Shown: piece after piece, positions 8,711 through 15,284 of the stretch | How the letters are laid out: every line of letters begins with the position of its first letter | How positions within the stretch are numbered: position 1 is the stretch's first letter | Assembly: GCA_027035885.1 (NCBI GenBank) | Contig: JALVTR010000135.1 | Location: 9,964 to 73,963, forward strand | Length of the DNA stretch: 64,000 nt | Origin: Desulfurellales bacterium | GTDB taxonomy: Bacteria; Campylobacterota_A; Desulfurellia; Desulfurellales; Hippeaceae | Reading direction: 5' to 3' | Made by a program: the position numbers and the translations under genes | The notes under the pieces: model-generated | Told to the model about the DNA's origin: nothing | The model's input: the letters and a program-made list of their open reading frames with translations, nothing else | Databases searched by the model: none

Positions 8711-8834
8711 AGCGATGTCCACCATAAGCAGGACATTGCGCGCTCACACAGCCCCATCTACCGTTGCTCCCTTCCGGGCCTGGCGGGGTTTGATAAGGAG
8801 TGTGTCGTGCAAGCCCACTTAAGTGGACATCGCT
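8711..8834 (-). ncRNA. ffs: Signal recognition particle RNA (4.5S-type)
   Basis: Minus strand carries the conserved helix-8 motif GCCAGGCCCGGAAGGGAGCAAC inside one long hairpin closed by a perfect 12-bp stem (AGCGATGTCCAC / GTGGACATCGCT). Typical position upstream of dnaX. Confidence 0.92.
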
Positions 8835-8843
8835 AAAAGAAAT

Positions 8844-8920
8844 TGGCGCGCCCAAGAGGACTCGAACCTCTGGCCCCAAGAACCGCAATCTTGTGCTCTA
8901 TCCATCTGAGCTATGGGCGC
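8844..8920 (-). tRNA. tRNA-Arg (anticodon GCG)
   Basis: GCGCCCA/TGGGCGC acceptor stem, encoded CCA, GGTTCGAGTCC T-arm, anticodon arm CAAGA-TTGCGGT-TCTTG; 77 nt. Confidence 0.95.
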
Positions 8921-8943
8921 GGTTTCCATCATAATAATTAAAA

Positions 8944-9038
<95 letters not shown>

Positions 9039-11378: not shown

Positions 11379-12131
11379 ATGGAGTGTGACAAGATTTTAC
11401 AAAATCTTGCAAAGGATAGAGTGTCCTCATCCAATACCATAGCTTTAAAGATGATAGACTGTAGCATTGAGCTGTTTGATAGGTGCGACTACAGGGGATT
11501 GATTGAAAATATAATAGAAAATCAACCGTCGATGGTTGTTGTTTTAAATGTGGCAGATAGGATATTAAAGGTGAATAGCAAAAAAGAATTGTTAGAATTG
11601 AAAAACGAATTTTTGAAAGCGGAAGAAAACACGGTCAATAAGGCAGTCGAGAGGTTAAAAGACTATAAAAGGATTGCAACGATTTCTTATTCAAGAACTG
11701 TTTTGAATACTCTTAAATTGATAAGGCCAAAGAAAGTTTTTGTCTCTGTTTCACATCCGGCTAATGAAGGTGAGAGATTGGCTCAAGAGCTATTGGCAGA
11801 AGGAATTGGTGTTGTTTTATTTGAGGATGCGGCTTATTCTGTTGTAATGAGGAATGTTGAGATAGTTTTTATTGGTGCAGATGCCGTATTTGAGGATTGC
11901 GTTGTTAATAAGATTGGCAGTTTCCCTCTTGCTTTGCTTGCCGATTATTTTAAGAAGGATTTCTTTGTTTTAGCCAATAAGTTTAAATTCTTAAGTGATG
12001 ATCTAAAGGGGAGATATAGAATTTTGGAGATGGATCCGTTGGAGATTACGCGTTTGAATTGTGAAGTGGTTAATGTCTATTTTGAGAGGCTTCCTTTAAA
12101 TTTTGTGAAAGAAATAATATCGGGGGAATAG
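11379..12131 (+). CDS. eIF-2B alpha/beta/delta (IF-2B) family protein
   Basis: ATISYSRTV, EGERLAQEL, FIGADAV, VVNKIGSFPLALLA; lacks the MtnA RGAP and THCN motifs. Confidence 0.85.
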   Translation: MECDKILQNLAKDRVSSSNTIALKMIDCSIELFDRCDYRGLIENIIENQPSMVVVLNVADRILKVNSKKELLELKNEFLKAEENTVNKAVERLKDYKRIATISYSRTVLNTLKLIRPKKVFVSVSHPANEGERLAQELLAEGIGVVLFEDAAYSVVMRNVEIVFIGADAVFEDCVVNKIGSFPLALLADYFKKDFFVLANKFKFLSDDLKGRYRILEMDPLEITRLNCEVVNVYFERLPLNFVKEIISGE

Positions 12132-12134
12132 AAG

Positions 12135-13088
12135 ATGGAGTTTTTGTTTGGTCCAGTGCCGTCTCGTAGATTGGGTTTGAGTTTGGGTATAAACATCATT
12201 CCGCACAAGACATGCACGTATAACTGTGTTTACTGTGAGGTTGGAAGAACTACGAATTTGACGGTAGTGAGAAAGAGCTTTTACGACCCTGAGGTCATCA
12301 AACGTGAGTTTGTGGGGAATATCGATAAGGTTGGTAAAATTGACTACGTTACGTTTTCTGGTAGTGGTGAGCCAACATTGAACAAAGATATAGGTGAGCT
12401 TATCAGATTTGTTAAGGGCAAGGGCTATAGAACATGTGTTTTAACAAATGGTAGTTTGCTTTATTTAGACGATGTAAAAAACGATTTGATGGAAGCCGAT
12501 GTTGTTATACCGAGTTTGGATAGTGCGAGGAGGAAGAGTTTTTCAAAGGTAAATAGGCCGCATCATAGTTTGATTTTAAAGAAGATTGTTGATGGTATAA
12601 GGGATTTTACAAAAGAATTTAAAGGTAAAGTTTGGCTTGAAGTTTTGTTTGTAAAGGGAGTAAACGACAGTGATGAAGATGTAAGGGCGTTGGTAGAAGC
12701 CTTAAGCACTATAAAGCCGTTTAAAATTCAAATAGGAACGGTTGATAGGCCGCCAGCTGATGATTGGGTTGAAAAGTTAAGCAATAAGGATATGATGGAC
12801 ATATATGCCTACATGAGCGCTCAATTGAATATTGAAGTTGACTTAATTGGAGGATTTAACAAAGAGAACGATAAATTCTACGAGGATGTGGAGAGGTCTA
12901 TCATTAAGCTGATAAACATTAGGCCTTGCACGGAAGATGACTTAAAGAGAATATTTAGCTTGAATGAAACTGGTTTGAAGGAAAAATTGGATAAACTTTT
13001 TGAAAAAGGGCAAGCCTTTGAGTATTATTTCGGTGGTAAACGCTTTATTGTGGGTAATAGATCGATGATGAAGGAAAAAATGGCTTGA
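12135..13088 (+). CDS. Radical SAM protein, uncharacterised TYW1/COG0731-like family
   Basis: FGPVPSRRLGLSLG, CTYNCVYC, TFSGSGEPTL, LTNGSLL; possible C-terminal winged helix. Confidence 0.88.
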   Translation: MEFLFGPVPSRRLGLSLGINIIPHKTCTYNCVYCEVGRTTNLTVVRKSFYDPEVIKREFVGNIDKVGKIDYVTFSGSGEPTLNKDIGELIRFVKGKGYRTCVLTNGSLLYLDDVKNDLMEADVVIPSLDSARRKSFSKVNRPHHSLILKKIVDGIRDFTKEFKGKVWLEVLFVKGVNDSDEDVRALVEALSTIKPFKIQIGTVDRPPADDWVEKLSNKDMMDIYAYMSAQLNIEVDLIGGFNKENDKFYEDVERSIIKLINIRPCTEDDLKRIFSLNETGLKEKLDKLFEKGQAFEYYFGGKRFIVGNRSMMKEKMA

Positions 13089-13100
13089 TGGAGGTGAGCG

Positions 13101-14090
13101 ATGGTTCATTACAATGAGTTGGGTTTTGTAAATACTAAGGAAATGTTTAAGGATGCTATGGAAAATGGATATGCAGTTCCTGCTTATAACTTTAACAACA
13201 TGGAGCAACTGCAGGCGATAATAACGGCATGTACATTAACGCAGTCGCCTGTGATACTTCAAGTATCTAAGGGTGCAAGGAACTATGCAAACCAGACGCT
13301 TTTAAGGTGGATGGCTCAGGGTGCCGTTGAGTTGATGAAGGAGATAGCAGCTGAGAACAACTTAAAAGAAATATCTATAGCCTTGCATTTGGATCATGGT
13401 GATAGCTTTGAGTTGTGTAAAAGCTGTGTAGAAATGGGGTTTTCATCTGTCATGATAGACGGAAGCCACCTACCTTACGATGAAAATGTTGAGATAACAG
13501 CCAAAGTTGTTGAATACGCCCATAAATACGATGTAACTGTTGAGGGTGAACTTGGCATTCTGGCAGGAATTGAGGATGATGTACAGGCTGAGAAAAATAT
13601 ATATACGAACCCAGATGATGTTGAGGATTTTGTAAAAAGGACTGGTGTTGATTCTTTGGCAATAGCTATCGGAACAAGCCATGGCGCTTACAAGTTTAAG
13701 GTTAGGCCAGGTGAGCAGCCACCTCCATTGAGGTTTGATATTTTAGAGGAGGTAGAGAAGAGAATTCCTGGATTTCCTATTGTTTTACATGGTGCATCAA
13801 GCGTTTTGCAAGAGTACGTGCAGATAATAAACAAGTACGGTGGAGCTTTGGAAGGCGCAGTTGGTGTACCAGAAAACCAGTTGAGGAAAGCAGCAAAGAG
13901 TGCTGTTTGTAAGATAAATATAGACTCAGATGGTAGGCTTGTTATGACGTCAAAGGTCAGGGAGGTTCTTTGGACACAACCTAAAGAGTTCGACCCAAGG
14001 AAGTATTTAGGACCTGCAAGGGAAGAGCTTATAAAGATGTACATGCGCAAGAACAAAGAGGTTTTGGGAAGCGCGTTTAGGGTTAAGTAG
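13101..14090 (+). CDS. fba: Fructose-1,6-bisphosphate aldolase class II
   Basis: YAVPAYNFNN, LHLDHG, SSVMIDGS, EGELG, GTSHGAYK, LHGASS, KINIDSD, FDPRKYL. Confidence 0.95.
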   Translation: MVHYNELGFVNTKEMFKDAMENGYAVPAYNFNNMEQLQAIITACTLTQSPVILQVSKGARNYANQTLLRWMAQGAVELMKEIAAENNLKEISIALHLDHGDSFELCKSCVEMGFSSVMIDGSHLPYDENVEITAKVVEYAHKYDVTVEGELGILAGIEDDVQAEKNIYTNPDDVEDFVKRTGVDSLAIAIGTSHGAYKFKVRPGEQPPPLRFDILEEVEKRIPGFPIVLHGASSVLQEYVQIINKYGGALEGAVGVPENQLRKAAKSAVCKINIDSDGRLVMTSKVREVLWTQPKEFDPRKYLGPAREELIKMYMRKNKEVLGSAFRVK

Positions 14091-15284
14091 ATGAGAAAAT
14101 TAAAAGAGGTTCAATTGGCAGAGGATGTTATATCCTTTAATTGGGACAAGAAGAAGGTCTTTAATCTCAAATACACGGCGCATTACGGTTTTGTCCGTAG
14201 TTTGTGTGATAAGGATTTAATTAATTCTGTAAAGAATTTTTCTTTAGAAGAAGAAAATTTTGAAAACTTTGTCCAAGTCGGTATTGGTGGTTCGGCACTT
14301 CCTGCAAGTGCCGTTTTGGCCTTTTTTAAAGGTAGCTATTTTAATTATGAAGGCAAAAAACGATACTTTGCCTTGGATAACTTGGACCCTGAACGTTTGA
14401 AACTTATTTTTTCGTTGGATTTGGATAAAACATTTTTCCACGTTGTTTCAAAGAGTGGAAAGACATCTGAGACATTATTGCAGTTTTTTATACTTTTGGA
14501 AAAGGGAAAAATAAAACCTGAGAATGTGGCGATTACGACCTCAAGAAATAGTTTTTTGGATAGTTTGGGAGATAAGCTTGGCATGGAGCGCTTCTATATA
14601 CCCGATGAGGTGGGTGGTAGATATAGTGTATTTACAACCGTTGGTCTACTTATGCTCGGTTTTTTTGGCCTTGATACACAAGCTTTTGTTGAAGGTGGGA
14701 AAAACGGTGTTAGGGCCTACAGAAATGGTTTCCCCTTTCCCAATGAATTTGTAGATTTTGCCATTGGCAATTATAATGATGGCAGAAATATCCTTGTGGT
14801 TTTCCCATATAAAGACAGGCTTCTCAGGGTTGGAGAATGGTTTAGGCAGCTTTGGGCTGAAAGCTTAGGTAAGGATGGAAAAGGGCAAACACCTGCCTTG
14901 GCTTTGGGTGTCACAGATCAGCATTCCCAATTGCAATTGTATCAGGATGGGCCAAAGGATAAGGCTTTTGTGTTTATTGACGTGCCTGAATGTTGCGATT
15001 TTAAAGCTAATAATGATTATGGTTTTGGCTTATTTAGCGGTGTAAGTATGGCAAAACTGATGGATATAGAAAAAGAAGCCACAAAGAGGGCTCTAAAAAG
15101 TAAAAGTATCCCAGTGTCCGAGATTTACATAGAAAAACCTAATGAGTTTGCTTTGGGCAATCTGCTTGTTTCTTTGATGATAGCCACAGCCAAAGCTGGT
15201 GAGGTTTTGGGCGTTGACCCATTTAATCAACCAGGAGTTGAATTGAGCAAAAGGTTTGCAAGAGAGGCTCTAAAAGATGTTTGA
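14091..15284 (+). CDS. pgi: Glucose-6-phosphate isomerase
   Basis: GIGGS, VSKSGKTSET, VGGRYSV, QLWAESLGK, DQHSQLQLY, DPFNQPGVE. Confidence 0.93.
   Translation: MRKLKEVQLAEDVISFNWDKKKVFNLKYTAHYGFVRSLCDKDLINSVKNFSLEEENFENFVQVGIGGSALPASAVLAFFKGSYFNYEGKKRYFALDNLDPERLKLIFSLDLDKTFFHVVSKSGKTSETLLQFFILLEKGKIKPENVAITTSRNSFLDSLGDKLGMERFYIPDEVGGRYSVFTTVGLLMLGFFGLDTQAFVEGGKNGVRAYRNGFPFPNEFVDFAIGNYNDGRNILVVFPYKDRLLRVGEWFRQLWAESLGKDGKGQTPALALGVTDQHSQLQLYQDGPKDKAFVFIDVPECCDFKANNDYGFGLFSGVSMAKLMDIEKEATKRALKSKSIPVSEIYIEKPNEFALGNLLVSLMIATAKAGEVLGVDPFNQPGVELSKRFAREALKDV

Follow-up and report, generated by a model that had tools for sequence, protein, structure and literature searches.

A stretch of 64,000 nucleotides from a Hippea-like vent bacterium of the Desulfurellales (family Hippeaceae; GenBank assembly GCA_027035885.1, contig JALVTR010000135.1, positions 9,964 to 73,963 of the forward strand), hereafter called the window, carries a gene for a short eIF2B-like protein directly upstream of a gene for a radical S-adenosylmethionine (SAM) protein. 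These two genes form a conserved unit that is found across three families of the order Desulfurellales, and the fba and pgi genes that follow them in the window are genus-level neighbours outside this unit. The eIF2B-like protein represents a Desulfurellales-specific bacterial subfamily of the Ser/Glu-type (aIF2B-like) clade within the family that comprises eIF2B and MtnA as well as ribose-1,5-bisphosphate isomerase (R15Pi). Its partner is an uncharacterised, widespread enzyme of anaerobes in an unnamed radical SAM family. The explanation favoured here, with moderate confidence, is that the eIF2B-like protein is a sugar-phosphate binder without Cys-dependent isomerisation that is coupled to, and works with, the radical SAM enzyme. 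What is new here is not a system of four genes. It is a variant, bacterial and coupled to a radical SAM gene, of a clade that was known before but is uncharacterised. In the literature no paper was found that links eIF2B-like proteins with radical SAM enzymes, and none that mentions COG0731.

A survey of the gene neighbourhood took in 37 genomes from the class, among which three families (f1-f3; Hippea, Desulfurella and relatives) have the short eIF2B-like gene. In 25/25 Desulfurellales genomes harbouring it the radical SAM gene lies directly downstream on the same strand, at a distance of at most ~25 nt. Exceptions are a genome whose contig breaks off precisely where the radical SAM gene begins (G016), a genome of the Hippea family in which the radical SAM gene is followed by rpiB and the eIF2B-like gene is absent (G023), and a genome with neither gene (G009). 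Upstream of the pair at least five different genes were encountered: a hypothetical and thioredoxin pair in the window, and elsewhere genes for a pyrroline-5-carboxylate reductase (H. alviniae), a FapA-like protein (three genera), an HhH-GPD glycosylase (Desulfurella) or a methyl-accepting chemotaxis protein (MCP; another lineage). The downstream order fba-pgi-ybgC-ilvD-leuS is restricted to the genus Hippea. An MCP gene splits fba from pgi in cultured Hippea species, and does so in at least four genomes of the genus, two of which are those of H. alviniae and H. sp. KM1. In H. alviniae, fba is moreover separated from the radical SAM gene by an AAA-ATPase_like/PDDEXK_9 gene (L001:7761-9299); the lineage of the window lacks both insertions. 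Genera other than Hippea have rpiB-glyA-TPR-HisK after the pair, and in three genera of the Hippea family (g3, g4 and g6) rpiB is the very next gene. A cation-efflux::NifX-like gene sits between the pair and rpiB-glyA in Desulfurella, and the genome to which the window belongs carries rpiB-glyA on a separate contig (C61). Because the pair persists while its flanks change, and fba and pgi follow it only in Hippea, the unit is the pair and not a set of four genes. The adjacency of the two genes is far beyond chance. A preliminary description of the window, made from its sequence, had united the eIF2B-like and radical SAM genes with fba and pgi in a system of hexose-phosphate metabolism and had proposed a gene-neighbourhood analysis. 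The linkage of the first two genes proved to be conserved despite the varied flanks, and that with fba and pgi proved to be limited to one genus, interrupted there by insertions and replaced elsewhere by rpiB-glyA.

The eIF2B-like protein consists of an N-terminal helical domain (~residues 1-95) and a Rossmann-like domain. Its AlphaFold2 model has a mean predicted local distance difference test score (pLDDT) of 95.4 and matches structures of the PF01008 family with a Foldseek probability of 1.0. The chain stops right after the last strand, and the model shares with PH0440 of Pyrococcus horikoshii the absence of the C-terminal α12 helix that Kuhle et al. described (PMC4787765). PH0440, an archaeal aIF2B (1vb5), is the top match in the PDB both by sequence (E 1e-18, 28% identity) and by fold; the next sequence matches are eIF2B-α, R15Pi and MtnA. 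The top NCBIfam match, to the equivalog NF004994 (PRK06372, ‘IF-2B subunit delta’), reaches 114.8 bits and remains below the cut-off of 249. The same holds for TIGR00511 (R15Pi; 59.7 bits vs 314) and TIGR00512 (MtnA; 45.8 bits vs 279).

Phylogenetic analysis by maximum likelihood, rooted on MtnA of the same bacterial class and with support from the Shimodaira-Hasegawa-like approximate likelihood ratio test (SH-aLRT), placed the eIF2B-like protein apart from R15Pi, whose clade is supported at 100%. It shares one clade (97% SH-aLRT) with PH0440 and with bacterial proteins that have Ser at the position of the catalytic Cys (Ser-type), and within this clade the Desulfurellales subfamily is nested and monophyletic (99%). 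The preliminary description had held that the protein is not an isomerase of the MtnA or R15Pi type, a view that clustering with bona fide MtnA or R15Pi in a phylogeny would have contradicted. No such clustering is seen in the tree, and the view can be upheld because the Cys is lost, both equivalog cut-offs are missed by far and the protein lies outside both clades. A profile search against 1.8 billion representatives returned five clusters above 290 bits, which constitute the Desulfurellales subfamily, and next scores of at most 168 bits. Below this drop, more than 140 of the 150 matches listed are short PF01008 proteins of 230-330 aa. In an alignment of 190 sequences, composed of profile-search matches and other homologues, Ser occupies the catalytic Cys position in 179, and R15Pi-like proteins are among those in which Cys is retained. 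Named members of the wider Ser-type clade are few and belong to Hydrothermota, Deltaproteobacteria and Chlamydiota. A metagenome-assembled genome of Planctomycetales encodes a relative at a greater distance (31% identity), and Haloferax has eIF-2B-domain proteins, among which is a NUDIX fusion (PMC8576121).

The residues of the ligand pocket have been described for PH0208, the R15Pi of P. horikoshii (Gogoi and Kanaujia, PMC5789824). In this enzyme the 1-phosphate is contacted by Arg22, Arg65, Gln166 and Lys215, the 5-phosphate by Ser137 and Lys240 as well as by the backbone, and the sugar by Asp204, Asn214 and Lys215. Cys135 and Asp204 are catalytic, and a C135S mutant binds the substrate yet is inactive (PMC5789824). 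These positions were mapped onto an alignment that comprised 13 sequences from Desulfurellales, 156 further sequences of the Ser type and 7 of the Cys type. Ser103 of the eIF2B-like protein (in TISYS) aligns with Cys135, a position taken by Ser in 13/13 Desulfurellales and 152/156 other Ser-type sequences, and the Asp of its GAD motif aligns with Asp204. All three side chains specific to the 1-phosphate site of R15Pi are replaced. Ser16 is found for Arg22 (Ser, His or Asn across the Ser-type sequences), Gln49 for Arg65 (Gln or His, with Arg retained in 27/156 Ser-type sequences) and Glu130 for Gln166 (Glu in 13/13 Desulfurellales and 151/156 Ser-type sequences). The 5-phosphate and sugar ligands Ser137, Lys240, Asp204, Asn214 and Lys215, which correspond to Ser105, Lys203, Asp168, Asn177 and Lys178 of the window protein, are retained in 94-100% of the sequences. 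In the N-terminal loop of the pocket, DRVSSS stands in place of the VRGAP of MtnA. The motifs on which the preliminary description relied are all present (TISYSRTV at residues 101-108, GADAV at 166-170 and NKIGS at 177-181, with no RGAP), and the mapping onto R15Pi agrees with its statement that the phospho-sugar pocket residues are kept.

The same pocket pattern has been described for eIF2B-α, for which a sugar-5-phosphate ligand was inferred from it (PMC5789824). Later, eIF2B-α was reported to bind sugar phosphates, namely fructose-6-phosphate (Hao et al. 2021, by the citation in PMC8576121; PDB 7kmf). As the Cys and the 1-phosphate ligands are replaced and the 5-phosphate and sugar ligands are kept, the eIF2B-like protein is most likely a sugar monophosphate binder, or else an enzyme of different chemistry. 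The label ‘non-catalytic’ that it had been given is not established by these residues, since the near-invariant Ser103, Glu130 and Asp168 would fit an enzyme with a different chemistry equally well. Independent fusions in the Ser-type clade, NUDIX::IF-2B (P0038, P0277) and cpYpsA/SLOG::IF-2B (P0035), suggest a nucleotide or ribose-phosphate ligand for this clade. Enzymes of the NUDIX and YpsA/SLOG families can release ribose 5-phosphate from nucleotides. It is on account of these fusions, together with the rpiB neighbourhood, that ribose phosphate is hinted at as the ligand.

In the window the four genes described before, with gaps of 3, 12 and 0 nt, were found as reported (Table 1). The stop codon TAG of the eIF2B-like gene occupies positions 12129-12131 and the ATG of the radical SAM gene starts at 12135. 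A Shine-Dalgarno-like sequence for the radical SAM gene is located inside the eIF2B-like gene, which suggests that the expression of the two genes is translationally coupled. The fba gene carries a strong ribosome-binding site of its own, GGAGGTGA. The product of pgi scores 231 bits against NF003016, under the cut-off of 487. No terminator-like sites were detected at either gene junction of 11379-15284, and the run of genes on the + strand goes on past pgi with ybgC, ilvD and leuS in the same direction. A riboswitch or leader for the eIF2B-like gene was sought with Rfam, which gave no matches inside 11379-15284. Over 8-21 kb of the window Rfam matched nothing but two tRNAs and a signal recognition particle (SRP) RNA, along with two plastid motifs that overlay the tRNAs and scored below threshold; all of these matches fall at 8.7-9.0 kb. 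The genes for the small SRP RNA and for both tRNAs, which score above the gathering threshold, lie back to back at 8722-9038 on the - strand, between dnaX-like and EAL-HDOD genes.

Table 1 Genes and signals of the analysed region, with positions in the window
Feature	Position	Strand	Description
eIF2B-like gene (gene 1)	11379..12131	+	250 aa; PF01008 IF-2B, 115.5 bits vs cut-off 22.4, E 3.5e-33
Shine-Dalgarno-like GGGGGA for radical SAM gene	12122..12127	+	read in sequence, within 3' end of eIF2B-like gene
radical SAM gene (gene 2)	12135..13088	+	317 aa; PF04055, 64.6 bits vs cut-off 29.5
fba (gene 3)	13101..14090	+	class II fructose-bisphosphate aldolase, 329 aa; NF005481, 584.9 bits vs cut-off 511
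pgi (gene 4)	14091..15284	+	short-type divergent glucose-6-phosphate isomerase, 397 aa; PF00342, E 1.2e-18

The radical SAM partner belongs to a family with more than 7400 homologues in many bacterial phyla and in methanogens. The protein has an N-terminal FGPVPSRRLGLSLGIN box, a CTYNCVYC cluster motif, a partial TIM barrel and a C-terminal winged helix (~residues 250-306). In an alignment of 20 family members (A4) the mean column identity is 55%, and the GPVxSRRLGxSLG box and Cys residues C27, C31 and C34 are invariant. The protein lacks an auxiliary-cluster Cys motif; it has two Cys residues beyond CX3CX2C, neither of which is an invariant column in this alignment. Its AlphaFold2 model (pLDDT 86) gave generic fold matches, to pyruvate formate-lyase activating enzyme (PFL-AE), NifB, TYW1, RlmN and viperin, all with at most 20% identity. 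No NCBIfam equivalog was matched by the family and no close relative was found in the PDB. Many homologues bear the JGI label ‘wyosine synthetase (radical SAM superfamily)’, which is not supported, given a score of 38.1 bits against the TIGR03972 cut-off of 318 and the absence of a second-cluster Cys motif.

The neighbours of the radical SAM family were collected from 80 diverse metagenomic loci. Recurrent among them are MinD/CbiA-ferredoxin ATPases (11), histidine kinases (9), NifU_N (7), DUF89/ARMT1-like phosphatase (6-8), MBL-fold proteins (6), glyoxalase (5), ArsP_2 exporter (5) and NifX-like proteins (5), followed by DUF134, CGGC and DUF364 (4 each). Together the recurrent neighbours make up an orange-protein-like metal-sulfur gene set. 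A natural radical SAM::NifX-like (PF02579) fusion of 446 aa (P0329) occurs in a metagenome. In the sister family f4 (genus g10; L038:5405-11095 and L039) a putative operon contains gltX, a gene for a Ser-type IF-2B-like protein (244 aa, TISSS), two TldD/PmbA genes and a DUF89/ARMT1-like gene; a radical SAM homologue lies on another contig in one genome of this family (G032) and was not detected in another (G029). These DUF89 contexts, the one at 8/80 radical SAM loci and the other in the f4 operon, would join DUF89 to both the eIF2B-like protein and the radical SAM enzyme in a triangle, if weakly. The window's own contig encodes a DUF89/ARMT1-like homologue with 44% identity to the f4 protein (C135:7597-8454), which lies outside the window, ~13 kb upstream of the eIF2B-like gene, and is too distant to call linked. 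As a separate observation, two lineages that are not related have a DNA glycosylase gene (UDG or HhH-GPD) upstream of a Ser-type IF-2B gene, next to it in Desulfurella (L005:3678-4328) and one gene off in the other (L150:3268-6708). A uracil-DNA glycosylase gene lies near the radical SAM family in 3/80 loci, and the glycosylase link may be a coincidence.

In the explanation favoured here the eIF2B-like protein would bind a sugar that is phosphorylated at its terminal position (C5- or C6-type) but not at position 1, the leading candidates being ribose or ribulose 5-phosphate-like compounds, and would perform no Cys-dependent aldose-ketose isomerisation. Its gene would be co-transcribed and translationally coupled with the radical SAM gene. 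The protein may then work with the radical SAM enzyme either as a substrate-presenting subunit or as a metabolite-sensing subunit that gates the enzyme. Several observations weigh against this explanation. Adjacency inside one order could persist through inheritance, without a physical or functional partnership, and an IF-2B::radical SAM fusion was not present among the top matches of a search with the concatenated pair. The nearest relative from outside the Desulfurellales (P0179) is not encoded beside a radical SAM gene. In the wider Ser-type clade no radical SAM linkage was seen at three loci (L009, L059 and L150), nor was a radical SAM gene detected with a further member (P0024), whose downstream gene has no domain call. 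From the side of the partner, an IF-2B gene occurred in the flanks of 0/80 of the metagenomic radical SAM loci, and the radical SAM family is found without an IF-2B partner in Thermodesulfobium, in another family of the class (f5) and in the Hippea-family genome without the eIF2B-like gene. As the family mostly occurs without an IF-2B gene, the eIF2B-like partner is dispensable for the radical SAM enzyme in general. Finally, Ser103, Glu130 and Asp168 are near-invariant in the clade, so that the protein could be an autonomous enzyme.

The last point leads to the main rival explanation, according to which the protein is a Ser/Glu/Asp sugar-5-phosphate enzyme, such as an isomerase or epimerase, active on its own in pentose-phosphate metabolism alongside rpiB, and the radical SAM gene is a mere inherited neighbour. 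Ser103, Glu130, Asp168, Asn177, Lys178 and Lys203 are 94-100% conserved in the 156 Ser-type sequences, beyond the need of a mere binding module. The position of rpiB, right after the pair in three genera and after one gene in Desulfurella, is in agreement with such a role, as is the occurrence of other clade members in many contexts without a radical SAM gene. However, R15Pi is inactivated by the replacement of its catalytic Cys by Ser (PMC5789824), and the pair has stayed intact through two or more rearrangements by which its linkage to rpiB was lost, as in the window's own genome. The overlap of the radical SAM ribosome-binding site with the eIF2B-like gene moreover suggests coupled expression. 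An autonomous enzyme is considered rather unlikely.

The reading of all four genes as a hexose-phosphate sensing or processing system of eIF2B-like protein, radical SAM enzyme, Fba and Pgi is very improbable. The tight co-directional spacing in the window, the lack of terminator-like sites at the junctions and the fructose-6-phosphate binding reported for eIF2B-α would be in line with it. However, the system is already largely refuted by synteny, the pair having different neighbours in all genera other than Hippea, and the extension of the co-directional run to ybgC, ilvD and leuS makes the region look like a housekeeping array.

Hardly any credence can be given to a role in salvage of SAM by-products. 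Here the protein would be a variant 5-deoxyribose-1-phosphate or 5-methylthioribose-1-phosphate isomerase clearing the 5'-deoxyadenosine-derived sugar of the radical SAM enzyme, with Fba as the aldolase, similar to the dihydroxyacetone phosphate shunt. The dihydroxyacetone phosphate shunt exists, and MtnA is promiscuous toward 5-deoxyribose-1-phosphate. Membership of PF01008, the adjacency of the radical SAM gene and the aldolase gene downstream in Hippea fit this reading. It is nevertheless unlikely because the protein has lost the ligands specific for the 1-phosphate, and a homologue of MtnA coexists with it. The substrates in question bear only a 1-phosphate, yet the catalytic Cys is also lost and it is the 5-phosphate ligands that are kept. 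A canonical MtnA (VRGAP, THCNTG) is present in Desulfurella and in another Hippea genome, and tblastn revealed an MtnA homologue in the window's own genome (C52:24623-25645). The linkage with fba, furthermore, is not conserved.

A translation-related role, in which the protein would bind an S1/OB-fold translation protein in a metabolite-dependent manner as proposed for archaeal aIF2B, has a similarly slim chance. Bacteria are not known to have aIF2-α. The gene neighbourhood gives no pointer to translation, and the conservation of the pocket indicates a small-molecule ligand. These points stand against the precedent of aIF2B, the closest characterised relative, which binds aIF2-α via the S1 domain (Dev et al. 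2009, in the summary given by PMC4787765). A defence system (weak, generic viperin-core matches of 52 bits in PADLOC only; genes core and chromosomal) and a modification of Ser103 by the radical SAM enzyme in the manner of anaerobic sulfatase-maturating enzymes (no SPASM domain or auxiliary cluster; Ser invariant in clade members without a radical SAM neighbour) were both rejected.

A wider reading, which is speculative and rather doubtful, joins the Ser/Glu IF-2B proteins, the winged-helix radical SAM family and the DUF89 phosphatases in one undescribed phosphosugar-based pathway of anaerobes. Such a pathway would make or repair a small molecule or cofactor tied to NifX-like, orange-protein-type metal-sulfur machinery, and in the Desulfurellales the radical SAM enzyme would have acquired the eIF2B-like protein as a dedicated subunit, either for binding the substrate or for sensing a metabolite. 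If this is true, the ancestral job of the aIF2B/eIF2B-regulatory proteins was phosphosugar sensing for a partner enzyme and not translation. The regulatory subunits of eIF2B are thought to have descended from sugar-phosphate isomerases via an aIF2B-like intermediate. The clade of this intermediate type, with Ser for Cys, Glu for Gln and a 5-phosphate pocket that is kept, includes bacteria of several phyla. In one order its member is genetically locked to a specific enzyme, which offers a tractable system, free of translation, for asking what the pocket binds and how such proteins function. For the large radical SAM family, which has no curated model, the results provide the first hints of connections with phosphosugars and metal clusters. 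As long as no ligand or reaction has been found, the results are of limited practical use.

Among known systems the archaeal aIF2B PH0440 is most similar. Both proteins have the two-domain fold without the C-terminal α12 helix, Ser at the Cys position, Glu at the Gln166 position and the conserved Asp, Asn, Lys and Lys, and both fall in the same well-supported clade. The window protein differs in being bacterial, shorter (250 vs 276 aa) and coupled to a radical SAM gene. The clade motif ESRP (ESSP in PH0440) is replaced in it by SxSHP, and xxD by FED. The function of the archaeal aIF2B group is described as unknown (PMC4787765). With R15Pi (Tk-R15Pi TK0185; PH0208, PDB 5yfj and 3a11) the eIF2B-like protein shares the fold (template modelling (TM) score ~0.8), the residues that contact the 5-phosphate and the sugar, and the GAD Asp, but it has Ser for the catalytic Cys, replacements of Arg22, Arg65 and Gln166 and no C-terminal helix. 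The likeness to MtnA is confined to the PF01008 fold and the GAD and NK(I/V)G motifs, whereas the Cys of THCN and the VRGAP loop are missing and the chain is ~90 aa shorter. Canonical MtnA genes in Desulfurella (L146:390-2155) and Hippea (L147:476-2258) are followed, with an overlap of 4-11 nt, by an enoyl-CoA hydratase/crotonase-like gene, an unusual partner for methionine salvage. In eIF2B-α (PDB 7kmf, 7kma), as in the window protein, the Cys and the 1-phosphate ligands are lost and the 5-phosphate and sugar ligands retained. However, the aligned eIF2B-α sequences have Ala at the Cys position, for which Ala or Gly has been described (PMC5789824), and Glu at the Asp position (GAEGV), where the window protein keeps Ser and Asp. 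Furthermore, eIF2B-α acts within the eIF2B decamer, unlike the window protein, which has no eIF2B partners.

The radical SAM partner resembles TYW1/Taw1 and PFL-AE in its partial TIM barrel with CX3CX2C, PFL-AE being the top fold match (TM score 0.73 on target). It scores far below the models of both enzymes, however (TYW1, as given above for TIGR03972; PFL-AE, 40 bits vs 232 for TIGR02493), and its sequence lacks a Cys motif for a second cluster. It is set further apart from both by two marks specific to its own family, the GPVPSRRLG box at the N-terminus and the winged helix at the C-terminus.

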